Of a stretch of DNA of 19,927 nt, positions 803-19,570 are shown in pieces. How positions within the stretch are numbered: the first letter of the stretch is position 1; each line of letters begins with the position of its first letter. A program made the translations under genes and the position numbers. Under the pieces are notes generated by a model. It was not told where the DNA came from. It saw only the letters and a list, made by a program, of their open reading frames with translations, and did no database searches. Source of the stretch: Nitrospinales bacterium (GTDB taxonomy: Bacteria; Nitrospinota; Nitrospinia; Nitrospinales; JAJDAT01); assembly GCA_046757665.1 (NCBI GenBank), contig JBHHYO010000051.1, positions 1-19,927 on the forward strand. The letters run 5' to 3'.

Positions 803-895
803 TATTCTTGGTTTCCGATTAAAAATCTAACGCTTTTTTAACAGTAATCTTTTTTTCTTGTGTCTTTCTTGACCGTCGCGCGGGCGGCTAGGCGG

Positions 896-1582: not shown

Positions 1583-1705
1583 TTTCAACGCCCTATTTTA
1601 AATGCTAACACCCTGTTTTTCAATGGTTGACTGGCTCGGCCCCGACTGCAAGGAGCAAACTTGGAGCAACCGGTTCAGGCTTTCGGAATACGAAGCGATG
1701 CGCCG

Positions 1706-2104
1706 TCACGCCGGGGTTTGCGATTTCTTTTCCTCGTTTTTTGCGAGTTTTATGATTTTTCTTTTGCCGGGAATCATGTCGCAGTTGCCGTCGAACACCG
1801 CGCCAACCTCGACATACAGGGAAGGCGTTTTGATGTTGCCGACCAACTCGCTTTTGGCGTGGATTTCAATCCGCTTGGTCGCCTGGATGACACCTTTGAC
1901 CTTGCCCTTGCAAATGACGGTTCCGGCAGTGATTTCGGCGTTCAGCTCCCCGGTTTCCCCGATGATCAGCGTATCGTCCGTCACCACCTTGCCTTTGAAC
2001 TTGCCGTCGATGCGAACGGTTCCCTGAAAATTCAGGGTCCCCTGGAAAACAGAATTAATGCCCATATAGGCTTTAAGGTTTTCCTTCGGTTGTTTCGCGC
2101 TCAT
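1706..2104 (-). CDS. Bactofilin (polymer-forming cytoskeletal protein, CcmA family)
   Basis: Beta-helical bactofilin pattern: FQGTLNFQGTVRIDGKFKGKV...LIIGETGELNAEI...GKVKGVIQA...LVGNIKTPSLYVEVGAVFDGNCDM. Basic C-terminal tail. Confidence 0.92.
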   Translation of the reverse strand: MSAKQPKENLKAYMGINSVFQGTLNFQGTVRIDGKFKGKVVTDDTLIIGETGELNAEITAGTVICKGKVKGVIQATKRIEIHAKSELVGNIKTPSLYVEVGAVFDGNCDMIPGKRKIIKLAKNEEKKSQTPA

Positions 2105-2141
2105 GGGCTTTTCCTCGTTATGTTAATACCCAATGTATAAT

Positions 2142-3011
2142 TTACGCCATTTTGGGCATAAATATTTCGCAAAGCCTTTCCAGGTCCTCGTCGGAGTAAT
2201 ACGCGATCTTCACGGTGCCGCCGCTTGCGTCCGGAACGATTTTCACCTGGGTTCCCAGCACCCGCGCCAACTCGGTTTCCATGATTTTCAGGAACTGGTT
2301 TTTTGTCGGCGGCTTTTTCCCGGCCCTTTCCGGTTCCCCCCGCGGCGAATATTTTTTGATCATGGACTCGGTTTGACGCACGCTCAGGCCCTCCTTGACG
2401 ATTCTCTGCCTCAAGGCATCGATTTCCTTTTCCGAAGGCAGGGCGAGTAGCGCCCGGGCGTGTCCCATGGTGATTTTCCCGGCAATCAGGTCCTCCTGCA
2501 AGGGCCGGGAGAGTTTCAGCAGGCGCAGGTAGTTGGCCACGGAGGCGCGGTTTTTGCCGACCCGCTGGGCGATTTCCTCCTGTTTCAGGCCAAATTCCTC
2601 GGCGAGCCTGGAATAAGCCTTGGCTTCTTCGATGGGGTTGAGGTCCTGGCGGTGGATATTTTCGATAATGGCCATTTCCAGCGACTGCACATCGCCGGCT
2701 TCCCGGATGAGCGCGGGGATTTTTTTGAGTCCGGCTTGTTTTGCGGCGCGCCAGCGGCGTTCGCCGACAATGAGTTCGTACCCGGTTTCGGCTCTTTGCA
2801 CGACGACGGGCTGGATTATCCCCTGCTCGCGGATGGATTCCACCAGTTCTTCCATTTTTCGCCCGTCGAAGCAGGTGCGCGGCTGGTTGCGATTCGCCAC
2901 GATTTCGTCAATCAGGATATACGTGCCCTCTTCGCCGGTTTCCGGCACGCCCAATTCAAAATCGGGGATCAGGGCCTCCAATCCTTTTCCAAGCACTTTT
3001 CGATGCATCAT
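2142..3011 (-). CDS. parB: Chromosome partitioning protein ParB/Spo0J
   Basis: N-terminal LGKGLEALI peptide, NQPR, GIIQPVVV, GERRWRA CTPase arginine patch, ENIHRQDLNPIEEA, and HTH QEEIAQRVGKNRASVANYLRLL. Confidence 0.97.
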   Translation of the reverse strand: MMHRKVLGKGLEALIPDFELGVPETGEEGTYILIDEIVANRNQPRTCFDGRKMEELVESIREQGIIQPVVVQRAETGYELIVGERRWRAAKQAGLKKIPALIREAGDVQSLEMAIIENIHRQDLNPIEEAKAYSRLAEEFGLKQEEIAQRVGKNRASVANYLRLLKLSRPLQEDLIAGKITMGHARALLALPSEKEIDALRQRIVKEGLSVRQTESMIKKYSPRGEPERAGKKPPTKNQFLKIMETELARVLGTQVKIVPDASGGTVKIAYYSDEDLERLCEIFMPKMA

Positions 3012-3013
3012 TT

Positions 3014-3835
3014 TTACACCTGATGAGCGGCCGTTTTGTCCGACTCGGCGGCTTCGGCCCGGGACAAAATTTCATCGGCCAATTTTTCATAGGAATCCGC
3101 CCCCTTACAGCCCTTGGCGTAAAGGATGACGGGCCTGCCGTGGCTGGGAGCCTCGCTCAGGCGGATATTGCGCGGAATAACGGTTTCCAGCAAATAGCCC
3201 TTGAAATACTTGGCGACTTGTTCCTTGACCTGGCAGGCCAGGAGGGTGCGTCCGTCGAACATGGTGAGCAAGATTCCCTCGACGGAAAGCGCCGGATTCA
3301 GGGATTTTTTCACCAGTTTAAGGGTTTTGAGAAGGTGGCTCAGTCCCTGGAGGGAGAAGTATTCGCACTGCATGGGAATGAGCACCGAGCCGGAAGCCGC
3401 CAGGGCGTTGAGCGTCAGCAAACCGAGCGAGGGCGGGCAGTCGATAACGATGAAATCGAAATTTTGTATCGCCTCGTCGAGCACGGCGCACAGCTGTTTT
3501 TCCCGGTTTTCCCGGTTGACCAGCTCAACTTCCGCGCCCGCCAGGTTTGTCGAGGCGGGGATCAATTTCAAGCGCTCGATTTCCGTTTCGCAAGTCACCT
3601 GGTCGAGCGAGACTTCTCCGGTCAGCAGTTCGTAGATGCCTTTTTGGTCGTCCGCAGGCGGGCAACCGACACCGCTGGAGGCATTGGCCTGCGGGTCGAT
3701 ATCCACAAGCAGTACGCTCTGTCCGTGGTTCAGGGCCAGGGACGCCGCCAGGTTGATGGCCGTCGTGGTTTTTCCCACGCCGCCCTTCTGGTTGGTCACG
3801 CTGATGATTTTGGCCGTACCGTTCAACCTGCCCAC
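3014..3835 (-). CDS. parA: Chromosome partitioning ATPase ParA/Soj
   Basis: Deviant Walker A KGGVGKTT, DIDPQANAS, IDCPPSLG, PMQCEYF and IPRNIRLSEAPSHG. GTG start preceded by GGAGG. Confidence 0.97.
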   Translation of the reverse strand: MGRLNGTAKIISVTNQKGGVGKTTTAINLAASLALNHGQSVLLVDIDPQANASSGVGCPPADDQKGIYELLTGEVSLDQVTCETEIERLKLIPASTNLAGAEVELVNRENREKQLCAVLDEAIQNFDFIVIDCPPSLGLLTLNALAASGSVLIPMQCEYFSLQGLSHLLKTLKLVKKSLNPALSVEGILLTMFDGRTLLACQVKEQVAKYFKGYLLETVIPRNIRLSEAPSHGRPVILYAKGCKGADSYEKLADEILSRAEAAESDKTAAHQV

Positions 3836-3933
3836 AAAAAAGACCTCCGCCCGTAATTTAACGAGCTAAACTTATCACAGAACCAAAAACATGCCAACAA
3901 AATAAACAAAAACCGGCTTGCCGGCCCAGAAAA

Positions 3934-3949
3934 TGTTCCACGTGGAACA
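3934..3949. promoter_or_regulatory. parS centromere site 1
   Basis: Perfect 16-bp palindrome TGTTCCACGTGGAACA matching the parS consensus, upstream of parA. Confidence 0.95.
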
Positions 3950-3981
3950 AGAAAAACGGGCAACCGAGCTACGGGCCGGAT

Positions 3982-3997
3982 TGTTTCACGTGGAACA
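3982..3997. promoter_or_regulatory. parS centromere site 2, overlapping the rsmG stop codon
   Basis: TGTTTCACGTGGAACA matches the parS consensus and starts 48 bp after site 1. Confidence 0.93.
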
Positions 3998-4699
3998 TTT
4001 TTGAAAAATAACCAGCCTGGATTGTGCCCCGGGCCGGTTTGTCAGGGGAATCTCCCCAACCCGCGCCAAGGCCAAGTTTTGGCAAACGGCGTCGGCTTCG
4101 GTTTTTTCCCTAACTCCTTTTTTTATAATGAGTTTACCGCCATCATGGATCAGCGGAGCACCCAAGGCCAGACTGGAATCCAGTTTCGCCACCGCCCGCA
4201 ACAAGGCGTATTGAAAGTGGCCCTGGTACGCCGAACTGCGCGCCAGCTGTTCCGCCCGGTACTGGAGAACGTCGATGTGCTTGAGCCCCAGATTCCGCAA
4301 AACGCTTCCCAGAAAACTTGCCCGCTTGCGGCGGCTCTCCAGCAACGTTATTTTCATCTCGGGAAAGACGATTTTTAGCGGAATGCCGGGAAATCCGGCC
4401 CCACTGCCGATATCGATGGTTTCGCCCGGCTCGGTCATGGCTCTGGCAAATTGCAGGGAATCGATAAAATGCCGTTCAAAGATGCTTTTTTCATCCATCT
4501 CGGCGGTCAGGTTGATCTGCCGGTTCCAGCGCATCAGTTCCCGAATAAAGAAAAGCGCCCGCTCCGCCGCCCGCTCCGGGTCCGCCATGGCCAACGGCCC
4601 GGCATTAACGCTACGCAAAGCTTCAACTATTTGTTTTTTCATACTATATAGCCCTGTCTGGCGAGCGGATTCCGGTTCCGATCCGGCTGTTTCTATCAA
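3986..4699 (-). CDS. rsmG: 16S rRNA (guanine527-N7)-methyltransferase RsmG (GidB)
   Basis: Motifs WNRQINLTA, RHFIDSL, DIGSGAGFPGIPLKI, LLESRRKRASFL, RAE and RAVA; position upstream of parA. Start uncertain: TTG 4699 overlapping the etfA stop, or ATG 4642. Confidence 0.93.
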   Translation of the reverse strand: MIETAGSEPESARQTGLYSMKKQIVEALRSVNAGPLAMADPERAAERALFFIRELMRWNRQINLTAEMDEKSIFERHFIDSLQFARAMTEPGETIDIGSGAGFPGIPLKIVFPEMKITLLESRRKRASFLGSVLRNLGLKHIDVLQYRAEQLARSSAYQGHFQYALLRAVAKLDSSLALGAPLIHDGGKLIIKKGVREKTEADAVCQNLALARVGEIPLTNRPGAQSRLVIFQKCST

Positions 4700-5691
4700 G
4701 ATTTCAACACATTCGCAAATTCCCGGGTAAGAATCGGCAACACTTCCAGAACGTCGCCGACGATAGCGTAATCGGCCACGGAAAAAATAGGTGCGTTAGG
4801 GTCCTTGTTGATGGCAACGATATGTTTCGATGAGGACATTCCGGCCAGATGCTGAACGGCTCCGGAGATTCCGCAGGCAATGTAAAGGTCCGGCGTGACG
4901 GTGCGTCCTGTCTGGCCCACCTGATTGGAGTAGGGTCTCCAGCCGTTATCGACCACTGGCCGGCTGGCGCCTACGGCGGCTCCCAGAACACCGGCAAGTT
5001 CCTCGATCAGCTTGAAGTTTTCCGGATTCTGCATTCCCATGCCTCCGGAAACGACAATGCGCGCTTCGGTAATGTCGAGAGTTTTCCCCGTTTCGCGGAC
5101 GATTTCCCTGATTTTCAGGATCAGGGCGCTGGAGTCCAGGTCGATGTCGCGGGTTTCCACCTCACCGGCGCGGGCGGTATCTGGCCCGGCGCCCCGGAAC
5201 ACGTTGGGACGAAGGGTGATTACCCGGACGACCGACGGCTCGAAAACCATTGTTGAAACGGCTTTTCCGGCGTAAACCGGGCGCTTGACGACCAATCCTC
5301 CCTGGGCCGTGTCGTCGGCCCTGAGCGCGATACAATCCGTCGCCAGGCCCGCGCCCAGTTCGGCGGCCAGCGCCGGGGCCAGGTCTTTGCCGCAGCTGGT
5401 GGCGGCAAGCAGAATGGTCTCGGGTGCGCCGCCGGCAACCGCCTGCTGTAACGCCGCCCGGTAACCGGAATTGGTGTAATCGGCCAATCCAGGGTTTCTC
5501 AGGATCAAAACCTTGTCCGCGCCGTGATGAAACAGGGGATCGGCGGTGAAATCTTCCCCCGACCCCAGCCAAACGGCGGTCACCCGGCCCTCCGACCCTC
5601 CGGCAAGGCTCGCGGCGGCGTTCAAGGCCTCGAAACTGACTTCCTTGATGGCACCATCGAGGTGTTCAACAATAACCCAAATTTCTTTCAT
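4696..5691 (-). CDS. etfA: Electron transfer flavoprotein alpha subunit (EtfA/FixB family)
   Basis: Motifs KRPVYAGKA, ARIVVSGGMG, AAVGASRPVVD, QVGQTGRTVTPDLYIACGISGAVQHLAGM and AINKDPNAPIF. Confidence 0.95.
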   Translation of the reverse strand: MKEIWVIVEHLDGAIKEVSFEALNAAASLAGGSEGRVTAVWLGSGEDFTADPLFHHGADKVLILRNPGLADYTNSGYRAALQQAVAGGAPETILLAATSCGKDLAPALAAELGAGLATDCIALRADDTAQGGLVVKRPVYAGKAVSTMVFEPSVVRVITLRPNVFRGAGPDTARAGEVETRDIDLDSSALILKIREIVRETGKTLDITEARIVVSGGMGMQNPENFKLIEELAGVLGAAVGASRPVVDNGWRPYSNQVGQTGRTVTPDLYIACGISGAVQHLAGMSSSKHIVAINKDPNAPIFSVADYAIVGDVLEVLPILTREFANVLKS

Positions 5692-5756
5692 GGAATTTTT
5701 TCCCGAAGCGAATTGCGGGAATTTGCATACGGTAAGCCGGGTGTGTCCACCGCCTC

Positions 5757-5785
5757 ATTATATCTGATAAAACGGCGGCTTGCAG
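5757..5785 (-). promoter_or_regulatory. Putative sigma70 promoter for the etfA-rsmG unit
   Basis: Minus strand reads CTGCAA-17 bp-TATAAT, with the -10 about 65 bp upstream of the etfA ATG. Confidence 0.55.
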
Positions 5786-5856
5786 AAAAAAGTACCCGTC
5801 CGGCGGCGCACTTGCGGATTCCACCGCCGGGGAACGGCGGGAACGATGATCGGGCC

Positions 5857-5885
5857 TTGATTTTTCCCGGCATGACCAGTATATT
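5857..5885 (+). promoter_or_regulatory. Putative sigma70 promoter for the plus-strand unit
   Basis: TTGATT-17 bp-TATATT upstream of the lipoprotein gene. Confidence 0.5.
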
Positions 5886-5973
5886 GACAGCGGAGAACCA
5901 TGAGGCGCGCAAGCGCTTTGGACCTGAACGGACACGCCCGTTTGGGCTAATAAATCAAGGTGGTGCGCCCGCA

Positions 5974-6108
5974 ATGCCGAAAAAAACGGCCGTTTTGAGT
6001 TTATTGACCGTGCTCGTGGTGGTTTTTCTGTTTTCCGGGTGCGGCGTAAAAGGCCCTCCCCGGCCGCCGGAACCGAAAAAAATGTCGGCCTCAGACACCG
6101 GTCGATGA
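5974..6108 (+). CDS. Small lipoprotein, LptM/YifL-like (44 aa)
   Basis: MPKKTAVLSLLTVLVVVFLFSG-CGVKGPPRPP has a basic N-terminus, hydrophobic core, lipobox FSGC and the CGxKGP motif of LptM/YifL. SD-like AAGGTGG upstream. Adjacent to a DUF484 gene, as yifL is near yigA in enterobacteria. Confidence 0.8.
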   Translation: MPKKTAVLSLLTVLVVVFLFSGCGVKGPPRPPEPKKMSASDTGR

Positions 6109-6124
6109 AGCCCCCCTCGCCTTC

Positions 6125-7366
6125 ATGAATCCCGAACAATTTAAAGAAAAAATCGCCATTTACCTGAACGAGCACCCGGAGTTTTTCAACGATTACCCGG
6201 AACTGCTGGAAAAGGTCAAGTCGATCAAGTCAAGCGACCTGCCCTTGCCGCCCGCGCACACGATCAGCGTATCCGACCGGATTATCCAGCGCGCCCGCAG
6301 TGACCGCAAACACATCAAGGGCAAGCTGGAATGGTTTATCGACCTGGCCCGCAAAAACGAAAAAATCCACGAGCATCTGGACGAGATCGAGCGGCTGGCG
6401 CTGAGTTGCACCGAACTGTTGCCCATGATGGCGCAGTTGCGGGCGGAGATCATGAAGCGGTTCGACATTCATCACGTCGTCATCTGCCTGGCGGACAGTC
6501 CGTACCATTTCACGGAAAACCGGTTGAAGGAGCGTTACCCCGAGCCCATGGACGGCGAGTTGCGGTTCGTCGAGCCGGCGGTTCTCGACTCCTGGCTGGA
6601 GAACGGTTTCGAGCCCGTCCTGCGCGGCGAGATCAACGGCAAATCCAGGGTATTCCCGGCTCCCGGCGTCCGCGGCCTGATCCATTCCGAAGCCATCATT
6701 CCGATCGTCATTCGCGGCAAGGCGGCGGGTTGCCTGGGCCTTGGCGCGCCCAACCCCTACCATTTTCATGAGGAATTGCGGAGCGATTTCCTGGCGCACA
6801 TGGCGGGCAAGCTGGCCATCGCCATCGACAACATTTTTCTTATGGAGCGGCTGAAAACGCAGTCTGTCATGGACCCCCTCACCGGCCATTACAGCCGGGC
6901 CTATTTCGACCCCGTCCTGGCAAGGGAGTTCGACCGCTCCCACCGGTACCGGAAAATGCTTTCCTGCCTGATTATGTGCATTGACTATTTCGACAATCTC
7001 ATCAATACTTATGGTAATGAGAAAGCGGAGCGAATCCTGAAGGAAACCGGCGGTGTTTTAAGCGAATGTTGCCGCTCCTCAGATATTGTGATTCGCTACA
7101 ATGAAGCCAAGTTCTTCGTGCTTCTGCCGGAGACCGACAGCGACAACGCCGTTCGACTGGCGGAAAGGATTCGCCAGGGCGTCGAGAGCCGGAAGTTTCC
7201 CGTAGCGCCGGAGTCCGGAGGCATCACGGCGAGCGTCGGGGTGGCTTCCTATCCGTCGCCGGCGGTGGCCTCGCGCGAGGATTTGGTCAAAAGCGCGTTC
7301 ACCGGCCTGGCCCAGGCGGTGGAAAAGGGCGGCAACCGGGTGCGCGGCGCTGTCTGCGGGGAATAG
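6125..7366 (+). CDS. DUF484/YigA (GAF-like) domain fused to a degenerate GGDEF domain
   Basis: N-terminus IAIYLNEHPEFFNDYPELL and SEAIIPI...LGLGAPNPYHF...SDFLAHM are DUF484-like. The GGDEF fold runs DPLTGHYSR...LLPETD...AERIR...ITASVGVA...KGGNRV, but the active site reads RYNEAKF. Confidence 0.85.
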   Translation: MNPEQFKEKIAIYLNEHPEFFNDYPELLEKVKSIKSSDLPLPPAHTISVSDRIIQRARSDRKHIKGKLEWFIDLARKNEKIHEHLDEIERLALSCTELLPMMAQLRAEIMKRFDIHHVVICLADSPYHFTENRLKERYPEPMDGELRFVEPAVLDSWLENGFEPVLRGEINGKSRVFPAPGVRGLIHSEAIIPIVIRGKAAGCLGLGAPNPYHFHEELRSDFLAHMAGKLAIAIDNIFLMERLKTQSVMDPLTGHYSRAYFDPVLAREFDRSHRYRKMLSCLIMCIDYFDNLINTYGNEKAERILKETGGVLSECCRSSDIVIRYNEAKFFVLLPETDSDNAVRLAERIRQGVESRKFPVAPESGGITASVGVASYPSPAVASREDLVKSAFTGLAQAVEKGGNRVRGAVCGE

Positions 7367-7409
7367 GCCGAACGATTTACTTTTCACTATCCAGGAAACA
7401 CGTAACACC

Positions 7410-7916
7410 ATGTTTAGAAAAGCGCGGCACGGCGACATCGACGCCATCGTAGAACTGGTCAACCGCTACGCGGAACAGGACCTGATGCTTTTCCGCACTC
7501 CCCAGGACGTTCTCCGGGACCTCGAGCATTTTCTGGTCATGGAGGAGGCGGGCCAACTGGTCGCCACCTGCCACCTGCGTTACGGCTGGGACCGGCTGGT
7601 GGAAATCCGTTCCCTGGCCGTGCATCCCGACCATTACCGGCGGGGCCTGGGAAGCGCGCTGGTGCGCCAGTGCATTGAGCGGGCGCGAGGCGGGGACGTG
7701 GACAAAATATTCGTCCTGACCTACGCCATGCCCCTGTTCGCCAAGCTGGGGTTCGAGGAAACCGACAAAGACGCCCTGCCGTTGAAAGTATGGACCGACT
7801 GCCAGGGTTGCCGGAAACGCGATCATTGCGACGAGACGGCGATGATTCTGGACTTGCATCCGGCGGTTCCAGCAGGCCAAAAGGAAATTCCACAACCTAT
7901 AGGTGAGTTATGTTAA
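7410..7916 (+). CDS. GNAT acetyltransferase, short N-acetylglutamate synthase (ArgA)-like
   Basis: EIRSLAVHPDHYRRGLGSALV acetyl-CoA motif, IFVLTY, FAKLGF, and the C-terminal LPLKVWTDCxxCxxxxxCDETAM Cys cluster of this family. Confidence 0.8.
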   Translation: MFRKARHGDIDAIVELVNRYAEQDLMLFRTPQDVLRDLEHFLVMEEAGQLVATCHLRYGWDRLVEIRSLAVHPDHYRRGLGSALVRQCIERARGGDVDKIFVLTYAMPLFAKLGFEETDKDALPLKVWTDCQGCRKRDHCDETAMILDLHPAVPAGQKEIPQPIGELC

Positions 7917-8194
7917 ACGCTTTGTCCAGCGCCGGTTCGGGATTGAAGACCTCTGCCCGCAAACTGCAATCCAGCGCCAACAACGTGGCGAACGTTTTGA
8001 CGCCGGGTTTCAAGGCAGACCGGGGGGTGGAGGCGTCCGACGTCAAATCCGGCGCGGCGGCGGAAACCTCAAACGTCGATTTGGCAAAAGAAGCGGTCGA
8101 TCAAATCACCGCCGTAAACGCCTTCAAGGCCAACGCCAACGTCATCAAGGCCGCCGAGGAAATGACCGGCGCCATCCTCGACATAAAGGGTTGA
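7910..8194 (+). CDS. Minimal flagellar basal-body rod-family protein (N- and C-terminal rod motifs only, 94 aa)
   Basis: N-terminal SGL...ANNVANVLTPGFK motif and C-terminal SNVDLAKE...AFKANANVIKAAEEM...ILDI motif, joined by a short linker. Confidence 0.85.
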   Translation: MLNALSSAGSGLKTSARKLQSSANNVANVLTPGFKADRGVEASDVKSGAAAETSNVDLAKEAVDQITAVNAFKANANVIKAAEEMTGAILDIKG

Positions 8195-8222
8195 CGGCGC
8201 AACCGTCGGCTGTTGACCGCCT

Positions 8223-8483
8223 ATGAGCCTGATTGAGAAAAACCACCTCAATTACCTGTCCACCGTCGAGCAGTTTTTTTTGTCGCTGAAGGATTCCGGG
8301 TTGTGCCTGTCGGCGACGGACTATCACCTGATCGGCGAATGGGAGGAGCGCGGCATCCCCGCCACCCGGCTGTGCCGCGCCATTGAACTGGGATACCAGC
8401 GGAACCGGGATGCCGTCCGCAGAATTTCCCTGGTTTATCTCAAGGATTTCATCGAAGAGGAAATCGAACGCGCTACGCCATGA
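8223..8483 (+). CDS. Small protein resembling the DnaD/DnaB_2 (DDBH2) domain
   Basis: LSATDYHLIGEWEERGIP...LCRAIE...ISLVYLKDFI resembles LSPxE..I..W....P...I..AI...S..YI..IL of DnaD C-terminal domains. ATGA overlap with the downstream ATPase. The ORF is likely real; the family is inferred. Confidence 0.65.
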   Translation: MSLIEKNHLNYLSTVEQFFLSLKDSGLCLSATDYHLIGEWEERGIPATRLCRAIELGYQRNRDAVRRISLVYLKDFIEEEIERATP

Positions 8484-9367
8484 CCCGTCCCGCCGTCAAA
8501 GAAAAAACCTGCGCGCAATGCGGCGGGAGCCAATACGTCGTCAAAAACCTCCGGGGATTGTTGCAAGCCGCGCCGTGTTCGTGTTTTCATTGCGACCTGT
8601 GCGGCGGCGACGGGCGAGTATTCGGCGAGGACGAGACGGGCCGGTCGTTCGTCCGCGAATGCCAATGCGCCGGGTTCCGAAAACGCGCCCGGCTATTGAG
8701 CGAAGCCGGGATTCCGGGGAAATTTCTGAACGCCTCGCTGGAAAATTACGAAACCGGGTACCACCGCTCGACGGGATTCGCCAAAACCGTCGCCCAGAAT
8801 TTCGTCAAGGATTTCGGCAAGTCGGAGCGCGGCCTGGTGTTCATGGGCGGCCCGGGGCTGGGCAAAACCCACCTTGCCGTGGCCATCATCAAATCCCTCA
8901 TCCTGGAAAAATCCGTGGACTGCAAATTCGTCGATTTTTTCCAATTGCTGTCCGACATCCGCCACGGGTACTCGCAAAATTTGTCCGACCGGGAAATCAG
9001 CGCTCCCTACATCAGCTCGGCGGTTCTGGTGATCGACGAACTGGCCAAGGGACGCAACACGGAATGGGAACTGACCATCCTCGACCAGATCATTTCCCAC
9101 CGTTACAACGCGGCGAACAAGATCACCCTGTTCACCACCAATTTCCTGACCACCGAGCGGCCGGCGGAAACCGCCAAGGGCGGCAAGAGAAAAACCGGAA
9201 CCAGACTGGACACGGAAAGCGGCGCCTATACGGACATGCTGACGCGGGAAACCCTGCAAGACCGGATCGGGCCAAGAATTTATTCGCGGCTGGCGGAGAT
9301 TTGCGATTTTGCCCGTCTCGAGGGGCCGGACCACCGCCAGACCCACGCCCGGGTGCGCCAGTCGTGA
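8480..9367 (+). CDS. DnaC/DnaI/IstB-family AAA+ ATPase with a Cys-rich N-terminus (putative replicative helicase loader)
   Basis: Walker A GGPGLGKT, Walker B VLVIDE, IISHRYN, FTTN and RIGPRIYSRLAE. The N-terminus has two CxxCGG...CxC units. Confidence 0.88.
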   Translation: MTRPAVKEKTCAQCGGSQYVVKNLRGLLQAAPCSCFHCDLCGGDGRVFGEDETGRSFVRECQCAGFRKRARLLSEAGIPGKFLNASLENYETGYHRSTGFAKTVAQNFVKDFGKSERGLVFMGGPGLGKTHLAVAIIKSLILEKSVDCKFVDFFQLLSDIRHGYSQNLSDREISAPYISSAVLVIDELAKGRNTEWELTILDQIISHRYNAANKITLFTTNFLTTERPAETAKGGKRKTGTRLDTESGAYTDMLTRETLQDRIGPRIYSRLAEICDFARLEGPDHRQTHARVRQS

Positions 9368-9371
9368 AGTT

Positions 9372-9794
9372 ATGAACGATGTTTTGCAATACATTCCGCA
9401 CCGGCCGCCGTTTCTTTTCGTTGACCGGATCATCGAATGCGCCGGGGAGCGGATACGGACCGAGAAGAAAGTATCCGAGGACGAGCCGTATTTTCAAGGT
9501 CATTTCCCCGGCCGCCCCATCATGCCGGGTGTGCTGATTTGCGAATTTGTGTTTCAGACGGGCGCCATTTTGATGGCGCGGCTGGCGGGGGGCGCGCAAC
9601 ACCGCCTGCCCGTCATCACCCGCATCCGCGACGTGCGCCTCAAGCATCCGGTGGTTCCCGGCGAGGTGATCCAGGCGGACGTGCGCTTGAAAGACCGCGA
9701 AGGCCCGGCGTATTATCTTTCCGGCAAGGTGACGGCGGGCGAAAAGAAGGTTTTGACGCTTGAGTTCGCCGCCATGCTGACCGAGGATTTGTAA
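9372..9794 (+). CDS. fabZ: 3-hydroxyacyl-ACP dehydratase FabZ
   Basis: Motifs [31 protein letters not shown] and PVVPGE. Start reassigned to ATG 9372. Confidence 0.9.
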
Positions 9795-9807
9795 GGGAGA
9801 GCACTGC

Positions 9808-10611
9808 GTGAGCTTTCTGGACCTGGAAAACAAGACCTTTCTGGTGTTCGGCGTGGCCAACAAGAAAAGCGTCGCCTACCACATCGGCAAAACCCTGGAA
9901 CGGGAAAAAGCCCAAGTGATCTACAGCGTCCGTAGCGAGGAGCGCCGGCAGTCGCTGGCCGACCTGCTGGCCCCGGCCCCGGTTTATGTGTGCGACGTCG
10001 AACGCCAGGAGGAAATCGACGCACTGCAAAGGCAAACCGCCTCGCGCCACGGCGTTCTGCACGGGTTGGTGCACTCGGTGGCGTTCGCCAATTACTCTGC
10101 CGGGCCGAAACCGTTTCACGAAACCCGGAAAGCGGATTTTCTTCAGGCCATGGATATCAGTTGTTTTTCGCTGATCAACCTGGCGAATGCCTTCAAGGAT
10201 CAGTTCGACCGACAGGCCTCGGTGGTGACGATTTCCATTTCGACGACGCGCATGGCGGCGGAGAATTACGGTTACATGGCGCCCGCCAAGGCCGCCCTGG
10301 ACTCAACCTTGTGTTTTCTGGCGAAATCGTTCAGCGCCTTTTCGGAAGTACGATTCAACTCGGTCAACCCCGGGCTTTTGAAAACCTCCGCCTCGGCGGG
10401 CATCCCCGGCTACTTGCAGTCCTACCTGCACGCGGAAAACCTGACCTTGCGCCGCCGGGCCGTGGCGACGCGGGAAGTCGCCGACGCGGCGGTGTTTCTG
10501 CTGAGCCCGCGCGCTGGCGCCATCAATGCCCAGGGCCTCGTGCTCGACGCCGGCATGTCCATCAACTATTTCGACCGGGAAATCGTTAAAAAAGCCACCC
10601 GGCCGGATTAA
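9808..10611 (+). CDS. fabI: Enoyl-ACP reductase, FabI-type SDR
   Basis: [29 protein letters not shown], catalytic Y-x6-K (YGYMAPAK) and [10 protein letters not shown]; follows fabZ. Confidence 0.85.
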
Positions 10612-10632
10612 AAACCTCTTTCACCAATAGAG

Positions 10633-10790
10633 CTTTGGCTAACCCAAGAACTTCGCCCCTTGGTGTCATCGCGAGCCGCCACTGGCGGCGTGGCGATCCA
10701 GCCGGGCCACGCCCGGTGGGAAAAGGCCTTTCTGGATTGCTTCGGCTACCGCCTCGCAATGACAATCAAACAAGTTCACTTGTGCAAAGG
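10633..10790 (+). repeat. Structured palindromic repeat (REP/MITE-like), copy 1; core 10664-10764
   Basis: Outer stem TGTCATCGCGAG/CTCGCAATGACA, inner stem GCGATCCAG/CTGGATTGC and three small hairpins. 39 bp (10684-10722) are identical to 13119-13157. Confidence 0.85.
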
Positions 10791-10846
10791 CCTTTTTCGG
10801 CAAACCCCGCGCCGGATCAACAGATTTTCCTATCCCGTAAAAGTAA

Positions 10847-10875
10847 TTGATAGGGGGCTGTTTTGTTGATATAAT
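10847..10875 (+). promoter_or_regulatory. Putative sigma70 promoter of the sensor kinase
   Basis: TTGATA-17 bp-TATAAT, near consensus, about 40 bp upstream of ATG 10915. Confidence 0.7.
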
Positions 10876-10914
10876 CCATTGAGCCGTGTATCGGGGGGAA
10901 AATCAAGGAAATCC

Positions 10915-13056
10915 ATGAAGTCCTTCCTGAACAGACCTTATATCCTGATGATGTTGGGGGCAATTCTGGCCGCCGCGATTTTTTCGGTTGACCTGATGAT
11001 GTCCCTGGGAGTCGCGGGCGGCGTGCCCTATGTGGTTGTCGTTTTTCTGGGGCTGTGGGTTCAAGACAAACGCTACATCCTCGTCAGCGCGATTGCCGGG
11101 TCGGCGCTAACCACCGCCGGCTTTCTCTGGTCCCCTCCCGGCGGCGATTTATGGCATGTGGCGGCAAACCGTTTGATCGCCCTTTTTGCAATTTGGGTGA
11201 CGGCGGTGCTCTGCCTGAAATACAGGGAAAAGGCCGAATCCGCCTTGTCGCAAACCCAGGAGGAGTTTCGATCCGTCTTCGACCATGCCATGGACGGAAT
11301 CCTGAAGATCGACGAGACCGGAATCGTTCGATCCTTTAATCCGTCCGCGGAGCGCATCTTCGGCTTCAAGGCGGAGGAGATCATCGGCAAAAATGTAAAC
11401 CTGCTGATGCCGGAGCCTTATAAAAGCGAGCACGACGGCTATATCCGGCGGTATCTGAACACCGGCGAGACCCACATTCTGGGCATGGCGCGGGAGGTGC
11501 TGGGGCAGTGCAAGGACGGCTCCGTCTTTCCCCTGGAAATCTCCGTCAGCGAGTTCTTCCGGGAAGATCAGCGCATGTTCGTCGGCATCGTGCGCGATAT
11601 CTCCGAACGCAAGCGGGCCGAGGCGGAGATCAGCAACTTGTCGAAGTTTCCCGCCGAAAACCCCTACCCCGTCCTGCGTATCGCTCACAACGGCACCATA
11701 TTGTACGGCAATGCCGCCGCCCAGCGGCTCTTGATGAAACAATGGAACCGCATGATCGGCCAGGCGGTGCCAGAGCAATGGCAGGAATGGATCGCCAGGG
11801 CAGTCGCCGAAAATGTCACCGAACAGGTGGAAATCGCCGTGTACGACGCCATTTTCTCGCTTGCGGTCACGCCGATTGCGAAGACCGGCTACGTCAACAT
11901 TTACGGGCAGGACATCACGGACCGCAAGCGGGCGGAGGAAAATGCCCAGTTTCTTTACCGGCAGATCGAATTGGTTCTGGCTTCTGCCGGGGAAGGTATT
12001 TTCGGGCTGGACTTGCAGGGGACTTTGACCTTCGTCAACCCCGCCGCAAAACGAATGCTCGGTTACAAGGTTGGGGAGCTTCCCGGCAAACCGGTGAACA
12101 TCTTATTGCAAGACCCCAACGTCCCGAAACAGGAGCCGGTCTCCTCCGAGGGCTGTCCTATTCTCGCCGTGCTGGAAAACAGTCTTTCCTTTCGCGTCAC
12201 CGACAGCGTGTTCTGGCGAAAAAACGGCACCAGTTTTCCGGTCGAGTACATCAGCACATCCTTGATGGACCGGGGCGAAATCACGGGAGCCGTGGTCACT
12301 TTCAGCAACATCACCGAACGCCTGAAAACGGAGAAGGAGCTGAAACGCCAGGCCGCCGACCTGGAAAAGGTGAACGCGGAGTTGAAAGATTTCACGCGCA
12401 CCGCCTCGCACGACCTCCAGGAGCCTCTGCGCAAGATTGTGACTTTCAGCGACCGGCTGGAGTCGGCGCTGACCGAGGGCAAGGAAGCGAACGTGCCGGT
12501 CTATCTCGAACGCATCCAGACCTCCGCGCTACGGATGAAACAACTGATCGAAGACCTGCTCGAGTTTTCCAAGGTTACCGCGCAACCCGACGAGTTCAAA
12601 TCCGTCGATCTGAACCGTGTGGTCGAGGGAGTGCTTTCGGACCTGGAGATTCAAATCGAGCAATCGAAGGGCCGCGTGGAGGTGGCCCCCCTGCCTACGC
12701 TGGAAGCGAATGGACTGCAAATGCGCCTGTTGTTTCAAAACCTGATTTCCAACGGGCTCAAGTACACCTCGCCGGAACGGCCGCCGACGGTTTCCATCAA
12801 AAGCATCTTGCTCCCCAACGGCAACTGGAACATTCTGGTGACGGACAATGGAATAGGCATCGAAAAGCAGTATCGGGAGCGGATATTCAAACCGTTCGCG
12901 CGGTTGCATTCATCCGGAGAGTACCGCGGCAGTGGCATGGGCCTGGCGATTTGCAGTAAGATCGTTTCCCGTCACAAGGGGAGCATTGCCATCGAGGACA
13001 CCGCGGGCGAAGGCACCTGTTTCGTCGTCACTCTTCCACAAACCCAGGAGATTTGA
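10915..13056 (+). CDS. Membrane-bound multi-PAS sensor histidine kinase with a FixL-like heme PAS domain
   Basis: Hydrophobic N-terminal segments and three PAS-like repeats. H-box ASHDLQEPLRKI, N-box FQNLISNGLKY, G1 DNGIGI, F-box IFKPF, G2 GSGMGLAI. ATG 10915 follows AAGGA. Confidence 0.93.
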   Translation: MKSFLNRPYILMMLGAILAAAIFSVDLMMSLGVAGGVPYVVVVFLGLWVQDKRYILVSAIAGSALTTAGFLWSPPGGDLWHVAANRLIALFAIWVTAVLCLKYREKAESALSQTQEEFRSVFDHAMDGILKIDETGIVRSFNPSAERIFGFKAEEIIGKNVNLLMPEPYKSEHDGYIRRYLNTGETHILGMAREVLGQCKDGSVFPLEISVSEFFREDQRMFVGIVRDISERKRAEAEISNLSKFPAENPYPVLRIAHNGTILYGNAAAQRLLMKQWNRMIGQAVPEQWQEWIARAVAENVTEQVEIAVYDAIFSLAVTPIAKTGYVNIYGQDITDRKRAEENAQFLYRQIELVLASAGEGIFGLDLQGTLTFVNPAAKRMLGYKVGELPGKPVNILLQDPNVPKQEPVSSEGCPILAVLENSLSFRVTDSVFWRKNGTSFPVEYISTSLMDRGEITGAVVTFSNITERLKTEKELKRQAADLEKVNAELKDFTRTASHDLQEPLRKIVTFSDRLESALTEGKEANVPVYLERIQTSALRMKQLIEDLLEFSKVTAQPDEFKSVDLNRVVEGVLSDLEIQIEQSKGRVEVAPLPTLEANGLQMRLLFQNLISNGLKYTSPERPPTVSIKSILLPNGNWNILVTDNGIGIEKQYRERIFKPFARLHSSGEYRGSGMGLAICSKIVSRHKGSIAIEDTAGEGTCFVVTLPQTQEI

Positions 13057-13064
13057 GAAAGAAA

Positions 13065-13204
13065 CCTTTGCATAACCCGAGATTCTTCGCCGCCCCGGTG
13101 TCATCGCGAGCCGTCACCGGCGGCGTGGCGATCCAGCCGGGCCACGCCCGGTGGGAATGGGTCCTTTCTGGATTGCTTCATCGGCTGAGCCGCTTCGCAA
13201 TGAC
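13065..13204 (+). repeat. Structured palindromic repeat, copy 2 (direct orientation; core 13099-13204), between convergent genes
   Basis: Same leader (CTTTG...TAACCCRAGA...CTTCGCC) and same core as copy 1; ends TTCGCAATGAC 8 bp before the ABC gene stop codon. Confidence 0.85.
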
Positions 13205-13212
13205 GGTCAGAC

Positions 13213-14967
13213 TCAGCGGTACTCATTGACGTCCGGGGACGCGGTTTCCAGCATTCCCAGGGTGTAGAGGCGGTAATAGAGGCTTTCGTTTTTCATCAGG
13301 TGTTCGTGGTCGCCCGTTTCGACCACGCGGCCCTTGTCGAGGACGATGATTTTGTCGGCCCGGTGGACCGTGCTGAGGCGGTGGGCGATGATCAGGGTAG
13401 TGCGATTGACCAGCAAAAGCTCCATGGCTTCCTGAATCAGGGTTTCCGAGCGGTTGTCCAGGGAGGAAGTCGCTTCGTCGAGGATCAGGATTTTCGGGTC
13501 TTTCAGCAGTGCCCGGGCGATGGCGATGCGCTGTCTTTCGCCGCCGGAGAGTTTGGTTCCTTTTTCTCCCACCAGGGTGTCGTAGCCTTTTTCCAGGTTG
13601 ACGATGAAGTCGTGGGCGTTGGCCATTTTCGCCGCCTGCTCGACTTCTTCCTCCGAGGCGTCGAGTTTTCCGTAAAGGATATTATCGCGCACGGAGCCGC
13701 CGAACAGGAGCGTCTCCTGCGGTACGTAGGCGATTCGGTCGAGGAAGGTTTTCATGTCCAGGCGGCGCAGGTCGTGCCCGTCCAGCTTGACGCATCCTTC
13801 GTCGGGATCGAAGAAGCGGTGTAACAAATGACCGACGGTCGATTTCCCGGCGCCGCTGGGGCCGACCAGGGCAACCATCTGGCCGGAGAGGATTTCAAAA
13901 TCGACGTTCTTCAAAACAGGCGTGTTTTCCCGGTAGGCGAAGGAAACGTTTTCAAAGCGGATATCGCCCTCAATGTTTGCCAGTTTGACGGGGTTGTCCG
14001 GGTTTTCGACTTCGGGCTGGATGTCGAGGAGTTCATAGACGCGGCCGATGGCTCCGGACGCCTCCTGGATTTGCGTGTAGATGCGGACGAAGGCGCCGAT
14101 GGGGCCGGCCATGATGATGGCATAAAGAAAAAACGCCGCCAGCTCGCCCGGCGTGGTGGTCCCCGTCATGACCTGATGCCCGCCATACCAGATTAAAAGC
14201 GCCGAAACCAGAAAAGTCAGGCCCAGAATGAAGGGGCCGAAAAAAGCCGATATCCTGACCTTGCCGACCGACGTGTCGAACGCCGTTTCAATTTCCCGCT
14301 CGAACCGCTTTTGCTCATACGCCTCGCGGGCGTAGGATTTTACAATCTTGATGGAAGAGACCACTTCCTCCAGAACCACCAGCGCCCGGGCGAGTTTGTC
14401 CTGCACTTCCTCGGAAAGCTTGCGCAACCGCTTGCCGAAGATGCGCGCAAAAAGCATCAGCGGCGGCAGGAGCAGAAGGATCAAGCCCGTCAGCTTCCAG
14501 TCCAGGTACAGAATGATCGCCAACCCTCCCAGCAGGGTGATGGTCTGCCGTAGCACCGCTACGGGAATGTTGACCAGGGCGGATTGCACCACCGAGATGT
14601 CATGGCTCATGCGCGACAGGATTTCGCCCACCCGGCGGCTTTGAAAAAACCGCACGGAAAGGGACTGGATGTGGGCAAACAGCTCGGTGCGGAAATCTGT
14701 AGTCACCCGATGACCGATGAATCCCAGAATATAATTTTGAGTTACCGCGAAGATGGCCTGAAAGATAATAATAACGATCAGGTCAAAAGTCAGGTCGTTG
14801 AGAAGCGCGCCGTTTTTCTCGATGAACACGGCGTTAACCATGTTGCGCACAATCAGCGGTAGCGCCAGGCTGATCAGTGAGGTGAGAGTCAGGCAGAGGA
14901 ACGCAAAAACGATGCTCTTCGTATAGGGTTTTGCGTATTTGAACAGTTTGCCGTACTTTTTCATCAT
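13213..14967 (-). CDS. ABC exporter, fused permease/ATPase (MsbA-like)
   Basis: Multi-TM N-terminal domain, Walker A GPSGAGKS, Q-loop YVPQE, signature LSGGERQR, Walker B ILILDEATS and H-loop IAHRLST. Confidence 0.93.
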   Translation of the reverse strand: MMKKYGKLFKYAKPYTKSIVFAFLCLTLTSLISLALPLIVRNMVNAVFIEKNGALLNDLTFDLIVIIIFQAIFAVTQNYILGFIGHRVTTDFRTELFAHIQSLSVRFFQSRRVGEILSRMSHDISVVQSALVNIPVAVLRQTITLLGGLAIILYLDWKLTGLILLLLPPLMLFARIFGKRLRKLSEEVQDKLARALVVLEEVVSSIKIVKSYAREAYEQKRFEREIETAFDTSVGKVRISAFFGPFILGLTFLVSALLIWYGGHQVMTGTTTPGELAAFFLYAIIMAGPIGAFVRIYTQIQEASGAIGRVYELLDIQPEVENPDNPVKLANIEGDIRFENVSFAYRENTPVLKNVDFEILSGQMVALVGPSGAGKSTVGHLLHRFFDPDEGCVKLDGHDLRRLDMKTFLDRIAYVPQETLLFGGSVRDNILYGKLDASEEEVEQAAKMANAHDFIVNLEKGYDTLVGEKGTKLSGGERQRIAIARALLKDPKILILDEATSSLDNRSETLIQEAMELLLVNRTTLIIAHRLSTVHRADKIIVLDKGRVVETGDHEHLMKNESLYYRLYTLGMLETASPDVNEYR

Positions 14968-14974
14968 ATGAATA

Positions 14975-15023
14975 GTGGCGCGGGTTTTCCGGCCCGTGCG
15001 GCAGGCTGGAAAACCCGCTCCAC
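14975..15023. repeat. Strong REP-like hairpin immediately upstream of the ABC exporter start
   Basis: GTGGCGCGGGTTTTCCGGCC...GGCTGGAAAACCCGCTCCAC has an 11-bp perfect core (GCGGGTTTTCC/GGAAAACCCGC) with GTGG/CCAC ends. Confidence 0.7.
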
Positions 15024-15327
15024 CAAAAAAACCTTTAATGGATTGGTTTCAATAGGGTTGGTCTAAAAGTGTCCGGCTCAAACGGGTTGTGAAAGAAAGT
15101 TATGATACCTTCTCAAGGCTTTCAATTCAACGCATATCCGGCTTTCTCTGAAGCCCCGTTCGAGAGATTGCCATATAACAGCATAAAAATCAATTGATTA
15201 AAAGTTCCGTGAAATTCCATTTTCTTCTAACCCAGGCAAAGGTCTTCCGGGGAAATTTTTTTGGGTTGCGAATGATTTGCAAAATCAGCGGTTTTTTGCC
15301 GGCGCCGGAACGGGATAATTTTTAAGG

Positions 15328-15356
15328 TTGCAATCCTTCAAACCGTTTCCTAATAT
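15328..15356 (+). promoter_or_regulatory. Putative sigma70 promoter of dnaA
   Basis: TTGCAA-17 bp-TAATAT, about 50 bp upstream of ATG 15406. Confidence 0.55.
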
Positions 15357-15405
15357 TGCTTCTTCCCGGTCTTATTCCCTCCAGCAGATTTTTGGAAGCA
15401 CAGCT

Positions 15406-16755
15406 ATGAATGTTCTCTGGAAGAAGTGCCTTGGAGCGATTGAAAAGCAAATCCTCCCGGAAAACTTCAGAACCTGGTTTCTCCCCACCTATCCCCATTC
15501 CGGGGATGATAAATCCATAACTATCGCCGTCCCCGACGAGTTCTGCAAAAATTACCTGACAAAAAATTACCTGAACATGATTGAGACGTCCCTGGCGTCC
15601 ATCTGTAAAACCGGCATGAAGGTAAACTTTCTGGTGAATCCCGATTTGCCGGACTCCGGTAACGGCCACGGGAAAACGGCGGCAAATAATTTTCCTTACA
15701 AGGTCGATGCAACCGGACCGCGAACGGTCAGCCCAACTTTTCTGAATCCCCGGTACACGTTTTCCAACTTTATCGTCGGGTCTTCCAACCAGTTCGCCAA
15801 TGCCGCCTCACAAGCTGTAGCGGCAAACCCGGCTGTTGCCTATAACCCTCTGTTCCTGTATGGCGCCGTGGGTCTGGGAAAGACGCACCTTCTCCACTCT
15901 ATCGGCAACGAGATTCTCCAGAAAAACCCGTCCGCGAAAATCCATTATGTTCCCTCGGAAGGTTTCACGGTTGACTTGATTCAATCCATCAAGAGAGACC
16001 AAATGACCGCTTTTCGAGAGAAGTACCGCTCCCTGGACGTGCTGATTGTCGATGACATCCAGTTTATCGCCGGCAAGGAGAGGACCCAGGAGGAGTTTTT
16101 CTATACCTTCAACACTCTTTTTGAGGCTCACAAACAGGTTGTTGTGTCCAGCGACACTTTCCCCAAGGATATGCAGAACATGGAGGAAAGACTGAGGTCG
16201 CGGTTTGAATGTGGTTTGATCGCGGACCTCAAGCCGCCGGACCTCGAGACCAAGGTTGCCATCATCTACAAGAAGTCGGAGATTCATGGTTTGCGGATCC
16301 CCCAAGACGTAGCTCTTTTCATCGCCAGCAACATTCGCTCGAACATACGAGAGCTGGAGGGCCTGCTTCTGCGGCTGATCGCTTTTTCCTCCTTTACCCG
16401 AAGAAAAATCGACATGGACCTCGCCGGGGAGGTTTTAAAAGAATTCACCCTGGACAAAAAACAAAACTTCACCGTGCAGAATATTATGAGAAACGTATCC
16501 GTTTTTTTTAATGTCAAGGTTTCGGATTTGAAATCCAAGAAGCGCTCCCGAAACATATCCATCCCCCGGCAAATCGCCATGTTTATTTGCCGCGAGCACA
16601 CCAAGGTCTCCCTCCCTGAAATCGGCCGGAAATTTGGCGGAAAAGATCATACAACCGTCATCTTCTCGCACAAGAAGATAAAGAATATAATCAGCGAAAA
16701 CAATGAGTTATCCAGGTCAATCGAAAAGATCATGCAAAACATCGAAAGCGAATAA
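15406..16755 (+). CDS. dnaA: Chromosomal replication initiator DnaA
   Basis: Domain I (LW...FRTWF), LNPRYTFSNFIVGSSNQFA, YNPLFLYGAVGLGKTHLL, LIVDDIQF, RLRSRF, NIRELEG and domain IV EIGRKFGGKDHTTV. Start set at ATG 15406. Confidence 0.98.
   Translation: MNVLWKKCLGAIEKQILPENFRTWFLPTYPHSGDDKSITIAVPDEFCKNYLTKNYLNMIETSLASICKTGMKVNFLVNPDLPDSGNGHGKTAANNFPYKVDATGPRTVSPTFLNPRYTFSNFIVGSSNQFANAASQAVAANPAVAYNPLFLYGAVGLGKTHLLHSIGNEILQKNPSAKIHYVPSEGFTVDLIQSIKRDQMTAFREKYRSLDVLIVDDIQFIAGKERTQEEFFYTFNTLFEAHKQVVVSSDTFPKDMQNMEERLRSRFECGLIADLKPPDLETKVAIIYKKSEIHGLRIPQDVALFIASNIRSNIRELEGLLLRLIAFSSFTRRKIDMDLAGEVLKEFTLDKKQNFTVQNIMRNVSVFFNVKVSDLKSKKRSRNISIPRQIAMFICREHTKVSLPEIGRKFGGKDHTTVIFSHKKIKNIISENNELSRSIEKIMQNIESE

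Positions 16756-19570
<2,815 letters not shown>

Follow-up and report, generated by a model that had tools for sequence, protein, structure and literature searches.

Bacteria are known to load their replicative helicase by three schemes, through DnaC, through DnaD/DnaB/DnaI or through DciA. Which of these, if any, is represented by a pair of overlapping genes near dnaA in a Nitrospinales bacterium is the question raised by the locus described here. The pair lies in a stretch of 19,927 nucleotides (nt; assembly GCA_046757665.1, contig JBHHYO010000051.1, positions 1 to 19,927 of the forward strand), and this whole stretch is called the window below. Open reading frame (ORF) A (8223..8483, +) encodes 86 amino acids (aa) and ORF B (8480..9367, +) encodes 295 aa, both from ATG starts. 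The sequence ATGA at 8480..8483 (+) holds the TGA stop of A and the ATG start of B, an arrangement typical of translational coupling. A preliminary description, made from the window alone, had read the pair as a small DnaD/DnaB_2-like protein overlapping a DnaC-family ATPase by ATGA, and both ORFs and their overlap are present as it stated. Comparison with other genomes makes it, on balance, probable that A and B are a resident DnaD-like/DnaC-like module that acts on the replicative helicase beside DciA.

The relationships of B place it in the DnaC/DnaI clade of AAA+ ATPases, as a helicase-loader homologue and not as the IstB of an IS21 element, in agreement with the preliminary description. 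B matches the PHROG family phrog_50 ('DnaC-like helicase loader') with an expectation value (E) of 4.7e-44 over residues 8-293, its N-terminal ribbon included. It also passes the Pfam model IstB_IS21 (PF01695; E 1.2e-11, 45 bits, cut-off 24.1), but this match spans only profile positions 47-189 of 238, compared with positions 3-234 for a true IstB of an acidobacterium. The best equivalog model is PRK08116 (101.4 bits, below its cut-off of 189), and B falls far under the IS21 helper equivalog NF038214 (57.9 vs 200 bits). Among solved chains, the nearest by sequence is Aquifex DnaC (3ECC; 73.7 bits, E 1.6e-19), followed by E. coli DnaC (47.4 bits), DnaI (34.9 and 33.4 bits) and IstB (31.7 bits). 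The AlphaFold model of B (predicted local distance difference test, pLDDT, 82.5) gave the same neighbors in Foldseek, where 3ecc ranked first (E 2.7e-12, template modeling (TM) score 0.83 on the target, 26% identity), with 6qem (3.4e-11), IstB 8q3w (2.9e-10) and DnaI 2w58 (1.7e-8) also among the matches, and where ranks 1-9 were all DnaC, IstB or DnaI chains (E 2.7e-12 to 1.9e-8).

The ATPase motifs of B are intact. The AAA+ core (8765..9154, +; about residues 96-225) contains GxPGxGKTH, VIDEL and TTN, which we take to be Walker A, Walker B and sensor I, respectively. In 37 homologues, G123, G126, G128, K129, T130, H131, D186, E187 and N221 are invariant, as are the arginines R192, R266 and R270. 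An insert of low confidence (9161..9241, +; residues 228-254, pLDDT <50), probably disordered, precedes a conserved C-terminal RIxSRL helix. At the N terminus, a Cys-rich region (8510..8668, +; residues 11-63) contains eight cysteines, of which C38, C41, C61 and C63 are invariant and C11, C14, C33 and C35 at least 90% conserved in the same 37 homologues. The model folds this part as a four-stranded ribbon that holds the cysteines (beta strands at residues 19-60), and the region probably binds metal as a zinc ribbon. The same CxxC...CxC ribbon occurs in Acidobacteriota orthologues and in phage and plasmid loaders. B is the single DnaC-type gene in the genome, which also has one gene for the DnaB helicase.

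A is a single domain of 86 aa that has no DnaD_N oligomerisation domain. Its close homologues number 199 and measure ~84-98 aa; those with names are from Nitrospinota, except one labelled Acidiferrobacteraceae. The link to DnaD comes from longer relatives. When a profile of A was searched against 1.84 billion representative proteins, 857 were retrieved at E <= 0.001, mostly of 205-260 aa (best E ~2e-15). In family members of ~215-260 aa, the N-terminal part is the A-like domain and an unassigned helical extension comes after it; they have no DnaD_N. This long form is a very large family, as 7963 of 8000 scored candidates pass E <= 1e-5, and its profile A2 retrieves the A of the window at E 2.0e-22, over profile positions 2-97 of 218 only. 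Five long forms were compared with phrog_7498 ('DnaD-like helicase loader'), and all five match it at profile positions 173-269 of 296, with E-values of 2.2e-15, 1.3e-11, 5e-10, 1.1e-5 and 1.4e-3; three of the five had been chosen for their DnaB_2 matches, and the other two, L018 (the best match) and P0260, had not. Because A and the long forms find each other and the long forms match phrog_7498, A is taken to be DnaD-like. By this transitive homology, the assignment of A as a bare DnaD-C-terminal-like domain, the short form of its family, holds.

Pfam scans of the relatives point the same way. Among 134 of 149 new representatives (12 fragments and 3 long multidomain proteins were left out; E <= 0.01), DnaB_2 (PF07261) was the sole family matched more than once. 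Its three matches, one of them above the curated cut-off (23.1 vs 22 bits), all lie on the N-terminal A-like domain (residues 23-74 vs profile positions 9-57). A separate scan found DnaB_2 in 4 of 44 relatives at E <= 10. The Atlas auto-name for the nearest cluster of one long form is 'Replication initiation and membrane attachment domain-containing protein', after DnaB_2; the Atlas lists DnaB_2 clusters for A itself at TM 0.68-0.69 and places the cluster of A in PF29728. A scan with the long form P0260 found no relative. The preliminary description had proposed that A kept only the C-terminal domain of an initiator. Such a remnant is not demonstrable, and A is the shortened version of a huge bacterial family whose DnaD-like domain stands at the N terminus. 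One relative has a different arrangement: in P0319 (576 aa, very G+C-rich) the A-like domain, at residues 354-415, follows a Ser/Thr protein kinase domain, which may be a true fusion or a mis-called frame.

The predicted fold of A is a common helical arrangement that decides nothing on DnaD identity. The AF2 model (alignment of 42 homologues, pLDDT 83.2) has four helices and a small beta bridge, and a Foldseek search against the PDB returned nothing at E <= 0.001. An exhaustive structural aligner gave many tied matches (Z 5.6-7.3), mostly AAA+ lid domains and including DnaA domain IIIb (Z 6.4). The DnaD-like chain 2zc2_B scored Z 6.2 (root-mean-square deviation 2.5 Å, 67 residues), tied with many of the AAA+ lids. 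A profile of A searched against PDB chain sequences matched only Cas9, at E 2.4, which was taken as chance. In viral contigs, 18 pattern matches to A were found and 0 were confirmed. A complex prediction of B with A (score 0.01, mark 0.32) was run without controls and carries no weight either way.

The two genes are neighbors across one order of Nitrospinota. In a sample of 120 Nitrospinota genomes, families f1-f4 and the genome of the window form one order (102 genomes), and families f5-f9 make up the remaining 18. Within the order, 80 of the 102 genomes have A and 86 have B (one A match is a 24-residue fragment at a contig end), and searches of f5-f9, the rest of the phylum, found neither gene (0/18). 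In the order the pair is single-copy, and wherever coordinates were compared A and B are adjacent and on the same strand. At 13 loci a script detected both genes, and the ATGA overlap is present in 11 and a 19-nt gap in the other 2; at 5 further loci the motif used by the script did not detect A. The pairing is more than chance. The distance from the pair to dnaA is 21, 39, 54 and 60 kb in four complete genomes, and in a fifth genome the pair is close to the end of a record opening with dnaA; because these genomes are related, this proximity is one conserved synteny and not five independent observations. The view of the preliminary description that the pair is resident, single-copy and conserved, with a gene order known from phage DnaD-like/DnaC-like modules, is borne out.

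That gene order is found in several systems. In phage and plasmid modules in which a phrog_7498 gene is followed by a phrog_50 gene (Bacillus phage PfEFR-4 gp37-gp38 and a Clostridioides difficile plasmid pair), the order and the overlapping frames are those of A/B; B is a full-length phrog_50 match, the A family corresponds to the C-terminal part of phrog_7498, and the phage loaders share the N-terminal CxxC...CxC ribbon. Unlike those modules, A/B is chromosomal, single-copy and lineage-wide, and, unlike the phage DnaD-like partner, A consists only of the ~85-aa DnaD-like domain, with no N-terminal DNA-binding/oligomerisation part. In the DnaD/DnaB/DnaI system of Bacillus subtilis, a DnaB_2-type protein is encoded beside a zinc-binding AAA+ loader (the dnaB-dnaI operon), and the DnaI structures 2w58 and 2qgz match B; A differs in lacking the DnaD N-terminal domain and in measuring 86 aa, there is only one adaptor gene, and a DciA-domain gene coexists. 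Aquifex aeolicus DnaC (3ECC, 3EC2) is the nearest solved relative of B in sequence and fold, a comparison that covers the AAA+ domain, the one part in the solved chain. E. coli likewise has a small primosomal partner gene directly before an AAA+ loader gene (dnaT-dnaC), and chains of its DnaBC complex match the fold of B, but E. coli DnaC has a helical N-terminal helicase-binding region where B has a zinc ribbon.

Mobile relatives were surveyed further. No phage or plasmid record reaches 32% identity to B (all <32%). Upstream of B-like mobile loaders lies a DnaD-like protein in a Bacillus phage and in a C. difficile plasmid, an O-type replication protein in a Klebsiella plasmid and an unassigned 'replication initiation protein' in a Roseburia phage, and the frames of partner and loader often overlap in such phage and plasmid modules. 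A loader copy on a Persephonella plasmid has no A-like neighbor. Extra B-like copies occur behind DUF1376 genes in the Nitrospinota genome G012 and in the Acidobacteriota genomes G163 and G206 (L210 909-2638; L208 1824-3600; L209). Because a DUF1376 gene precedes them and they are multi-copy in G163 and G206, they look like prophage modules. Derivation of A from the C terminus of the DUF1376 partner was considered and dropped, as a hidden Markov model (HMM) of the A domain found no such match: searched against the upstream partners of seven mobile loaders and the six-frame ORFs of 16 loci, it matched only two positive controls.

A maximum-likelihood tree of 25 rows was built for B; its sampling is thin, many of its branches are long, and it holds one IstB, no Aquificota chromosomal DnaC and no DnaI. 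Eight Nitrospinota B proteins group together (94/96), their sister being the Nitrospinota prophage-like copy (94/92), and five Acidobacteriota B proteins form a clade of their own (98/99). Outside fall the IstB, two Bacillota-phage loaders and E. coli DnaC, which groups with a lambdoid plasmid loader, away from B. The prophage loaders that lie closest in the tree differ from A/B in their partner, a DUF1376 protein without an A-like domain. B may have been acquired once, long ago, or on two separate occasions, and the tree is compatible with both. Nesting of the ATPase within IS21 IstB proteins, which the preliminary description had named as an outcome that would speak against a loader, is not seen in this tree, where IstB is represented by a single row.

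From these comparisons, A/B would be a chromosomally resident counterpart, passed on vertically, of the two-gene replication module known from phages and Bacillota, in which a DnaD-like adaptor gene is followed by a gene for a DnaC/DnaI-type AAA+ loader. B would most likely use its N-terminal zinc ribbon to bind the one replicative helicase, DnaB, and its ATP-dependent oligomerisation on single-stranded DNA would open or place the helicase ring, in the manner of DnaC and DnaI. A, made in step with B through the ATGA overlap, would most likely serve as an adaptor that connects DNA or DnaA with B or with the helicase. The module would work beside a retained but divergent DciA-domain protein, with no replacement of one by the other. 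The data give good support to the homology of both proteins to the two halves of that module, and establish the intact ATPase motifs, the single copy, the lineage-wide conservation, the gene order and the coexistence with DciA. Binding to DnaB, loading activity, contact between A and B and a division of labor with DciA are predicted from sequence relationships.

Several results, given in this and the following three paragraphs, weigh against this reading. A has no match of its own in Pfam, NCBIfam or PHROG (none to PF07261 at E <= 1, none in PHROG at E <= 0.01), and for this reason the DnaD-like pattern that the preliminary description saw in A is not detectable directly; what stands of that claim is the route through the long forms, which match phrog_7498 at E 2.2e-15 to 1.4e-3 and DnaB_2 rarely. 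When hhalign was used to compare the alignment of A with single phage DnaD-like proteins (E 0.094 and 0.23), and a broader A-domain alignment with 52 Bacillus-phage DnaB_2 segments, a narrow set (E 0.031, probability 1.6%), the expected part of the domain was aligned each time but no match was significant. In the structural comparison, AAA+ lid domains rank level with or above 2zc2. B lies under the cut-offs of both the DnaC equivalog NF005931 (63.3 vs 357 bits) and the DnaI equivalog NF006505 (45.1 vs 228 bits). Within the order, five of the six genomes of genus g14 have B but none of the six has A, so that A is not obligatory for B and the pair is in part dispensable. The synteny is retained in g14 (GGDEF, GNAT, a 244-aa rod protein, then B), with ~250 nt between the rod-protein gene and the likely start of B (L116 3224-3471), and no remnant of A was found in three g14 loci (best tblastn E 0.4).

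The second set of results concerns DciA. The preliminary description had expected dciA to be absent and had counted its presence against a loader module, yet the genome of the window contains one PF05258 (DciA) domain (38.9 bits, cut-off 24), the only one it has. The domain forms the N terminus of a frame of >599 aa (G000:C64, locus L001 1-1797, -) downstream of recN, which runs on through a lipobox-like stretch and then tetratricopeptide (TPR) repeats. DciA-TPR proteins in Nitrospinae have already been noted in a preprint (Blaine et al., bioRxiv 10.1101/2022.01.24.477630). Across the phylum the PF05258 domain is present in 109 of 120 genomes, including 93 of the 102 genomes of the order. In f5-f9 the 16 genomes with a match have scores of 58.7-73.5 bits, in frames of ~110-190 aa except in G109 (783 aa). 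Matches in the order (93 genomes) score 30.4-54.3 bits, apart from one outlier of 82.3 bits whose genome shows 7% contamination; 41 of these 93 genomes have the match inside a frame of at least 740 aa. The contrast in score between the order and the rest is one lineage-level difference, not many independent events. With a DciA-domain gene present, loading at oriC need not fall to B. Brezellec et al. 2016 (PMC5109545) state that resident dna[CI] is always lacking where a PF05258 gene occurs; their list of lineages with resident dna[CI] includes Aquificae, among those that gained it, and does not include Acidobacteria, and their strain list has no Nitrospinae. If B is taken as a resident gene, the pattern seen here departs from this rule of exclusion.

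Acidobacteriota supply the third set. Long-form A was examined in 80 loci of Terriglobia-type genomes (in locus L018 it lies downstream of nadC, birA and coaX), and A matches the N terminus of the long form in all 80 (tblastn ~1e-9), but B was found within 4 kb of the long form in 0 of the 80. A B orthologue is encoded elsewhere in all five such genomes that were checked (35-38% identity, E ~1e-39, same CxxC...CxC start), and each of these five also has a DciA gene. In an even sample of 121 Acidobacteriota genomes, which includes two unpublished ones (G148 and G173), 113 have a B-type gene (E <= 1e-15) and 119 a long form (111/119 and 117/119 without the unpublished two). Both families are thus nearly universal in the sampled Acidobacteriota, with the genes unlinked, and the module is not peculiar to its lineage, contrary to what had been supposed. 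Where both genes lie on one contig (35 genomes), they are 7-20 kb apart in 21, 30-80 kb in 5 and >200 kb in 9, by a hand tally of coordinates that leaves out G148 and G173.

In two genomes the interval runs from the long form through MazG, DUF1844, dnaK, dnaJ and a MerR/HspR-like gene to B, which overlaps that last gene. A search with this HspR-like protein was positive in 97 of the 121 genomes (96/119 without the unpublished two). By hand tally, the HspR-like gene lies upstream of B on the same strand at <400 nt in 15 genomes and at 0.8-1.4 kb in 28, that is, within 1.4 kb in 43 of the 113 B-bearing genomes (43/111 without the unpublished two). In two genomes with the longer spacing, the intervening gene encodes a sigma-70 family factor of 286-287 aa, giving the cluster dnaK-(hsp20)-dnaJ-hspR-sigma-B. 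In all four genomes examined in this respect, B ends a dnaK-(hsp20)-dnaJ-hspR(-sigma-70 family) cluster (L212 8216-12572; L213; L214; L215). Such a heat-shock context is at least as compatible with a stress-linked role as with origin firing.

Alternatives in which the module serves restart or stress, or has changed its function, are kept because A and B coexist with DciA, A is lost in g14 and B has a heat-shock context in Acidobacteriota. In the first of these alternatives, which we consider rather unlikely, the module would act away from oriC, reloading the helicase where forks have stalled or collapsed, or following stress, and DciA would load it at the origin. Both DnaT/DnaC and DnaD/DnaB/DnaI also serve PriA-dependent restart. 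That 93 of the 102 genomes in the order, and all five Acidobacteriota checked, retain DciA agrees with such a division, as do the HspR-like MerR gene within 1.4 kb upstream of B in 43 of 113 Acidobacteriota and the four dnaK-dnaJ-hspR-B clusters. The Nitrospinota pair, however, is origin-proximal and has no chaperone neighbors, and gene neighborhood alone shows neither co-regulation nor function. The DciA domain of the order, at 30-54 bits (with one outlier) versus 59-74 elsewhere and often inside frames of at least 740 aa, hints that it is DciA that changed its role.

That B is a domesticated loader-type ATPase which no longer works on the helicase is a less probable explanation still, and one that we regard as unlikely. 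B could then be an ATP-dependent switch tied to DnaK/DnaJ or to the control of DnaA, and A would be an unrelated small helical partner or regulator. The zinc region of B does spell a DnaJ-like CxxCxGxG, which the Pfam model DnaJ_CXXCXGXG matches only at E 0.96; B stands at the end of the dnaK-dnaJ-hspR clusters of Acidobacteriota; and AAA+ lid domains are the best fold matches of A. The same CxxC...CxC ribbon, however, is found in phage and plasmid loaders that stand beside DnaD-like or O-like genes, B matches the phage loader family over its whole length, ribbon included, and the family of A matches phage DnaD-like loaders.

An IS21-type helper ATPase or a recent prophage part, with A as an accessory mobile-element gene, is hardly credible: PF01695 is the IstB family model and its AAA+ clade is common to IstB and B, and prophage-like modules of DUF1376 plus a zinc-ribbon loader do occur in the same phyla, one copy being sister to the Nitrospinota clade (94/92), but B covers PF01695 only in part and lies far below the IS21 helper cut-off, Pfam scans of the 19 ORFs of the window found no transposase (IstA), integrase or phage gene (as the preliminary description had stated), B is single-copy, the GGDEF-GNAT-rod protein-(A)-B synteny is kept even in the genus without A, identity to phage and plasmid records is <32%, and the one true IstB row of the tree falls outside the clade. 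On these grounds both an IstB and a recent mobile element were rejected, as was, on the evidence given further above, a genome free of DciA.

In the window, A and B are part of a co-directional, closely packed run of genes, identified from the ORFs and their Pfam matches. Upstream lie a GGDEF gene (6125-7366), a GNAT gene (7410-7916) and a rod-protein-like ORF of 94 aa (7910-8194, +), and downstream a FabZ-like gene (9372-9794) and a FabI-like gene (9808-10611), all in the same run. The 94-aa ORF comprises just two segments of a flagellar rod/hook protein, Flg_bb_rod from the N terminus and Flg_bbr_C from the C terminus, and may be a mini rod-protein or a decayed gene; the gene in the same position in genus g14 encodes 244 aa (L116 2489-3223). 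The start of dnaA (15328-16755) is 6.0 kb beyond the end of B, and dnaA is followed directly by gyrB (16970-19570), with a 214-nt spacer and neither dnaN nor recF in between. Other genes of the window encode or are parB, parA, rsmG, an electron transfer flavoprotein (ETF) subunit, a PAS kinase and an ATP-binding cassette (ABC) exporter, and two ORFs (860-1630 and 1602-2027) have no Pfam match. An N6/N4 DNA methylase gene (2-802, -) runs off the left end, where G+C is lower (0.43 over 1-1000); G+C also dips to 0.44-0.48 around 14.5-17.5 kb. The preliminary description had put the pair near oriC. As the window shows no enrichment of DnaA-box-like words (7, against an expected 7.3), oriC was not placed.

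No paper was found on a DnaC-type loader in Nitrospin* or Acidobacteri*, or on a DnaC-like gene in a dnaK/hspR operon, in a search that left most subscription journals outside its reach. With moderate confidence, A/B is a module of a known, DnaD-like/DnaC-like type, and genes of both its families belong, singly and along with DciA, to the core set of one Nitrospinota order and of almost all Acidobacteriota sampled. A wider reading that joins these observations is possible, although we hold it only tentatively. Nitrospinales and Acidobacteriota would run an ATP-independent DciA and a phage-derived, ATP-driven loader side by side as core genes, with labor split between origin firing and stress or restart. 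In Acidobacteriota the ATPase would have been wired into a dnaK-dnaJ-hspR cluster; in Nitrospinales the adaptor would have been cut to a bare DnaD-like domain and coupled to the ATPase, and DciA would have diverged and been fused to a TPR protein. If this is true, the mutual exclusion of resident dna[CI] and dciA would fail for whole phyla. The 86-aa A would define the minimal functional unit of a DnaD-like domain, and, if both systems act on one helicase, these lineages would be natural material for separating the contributions of DciA and of an ATP-driven loader.

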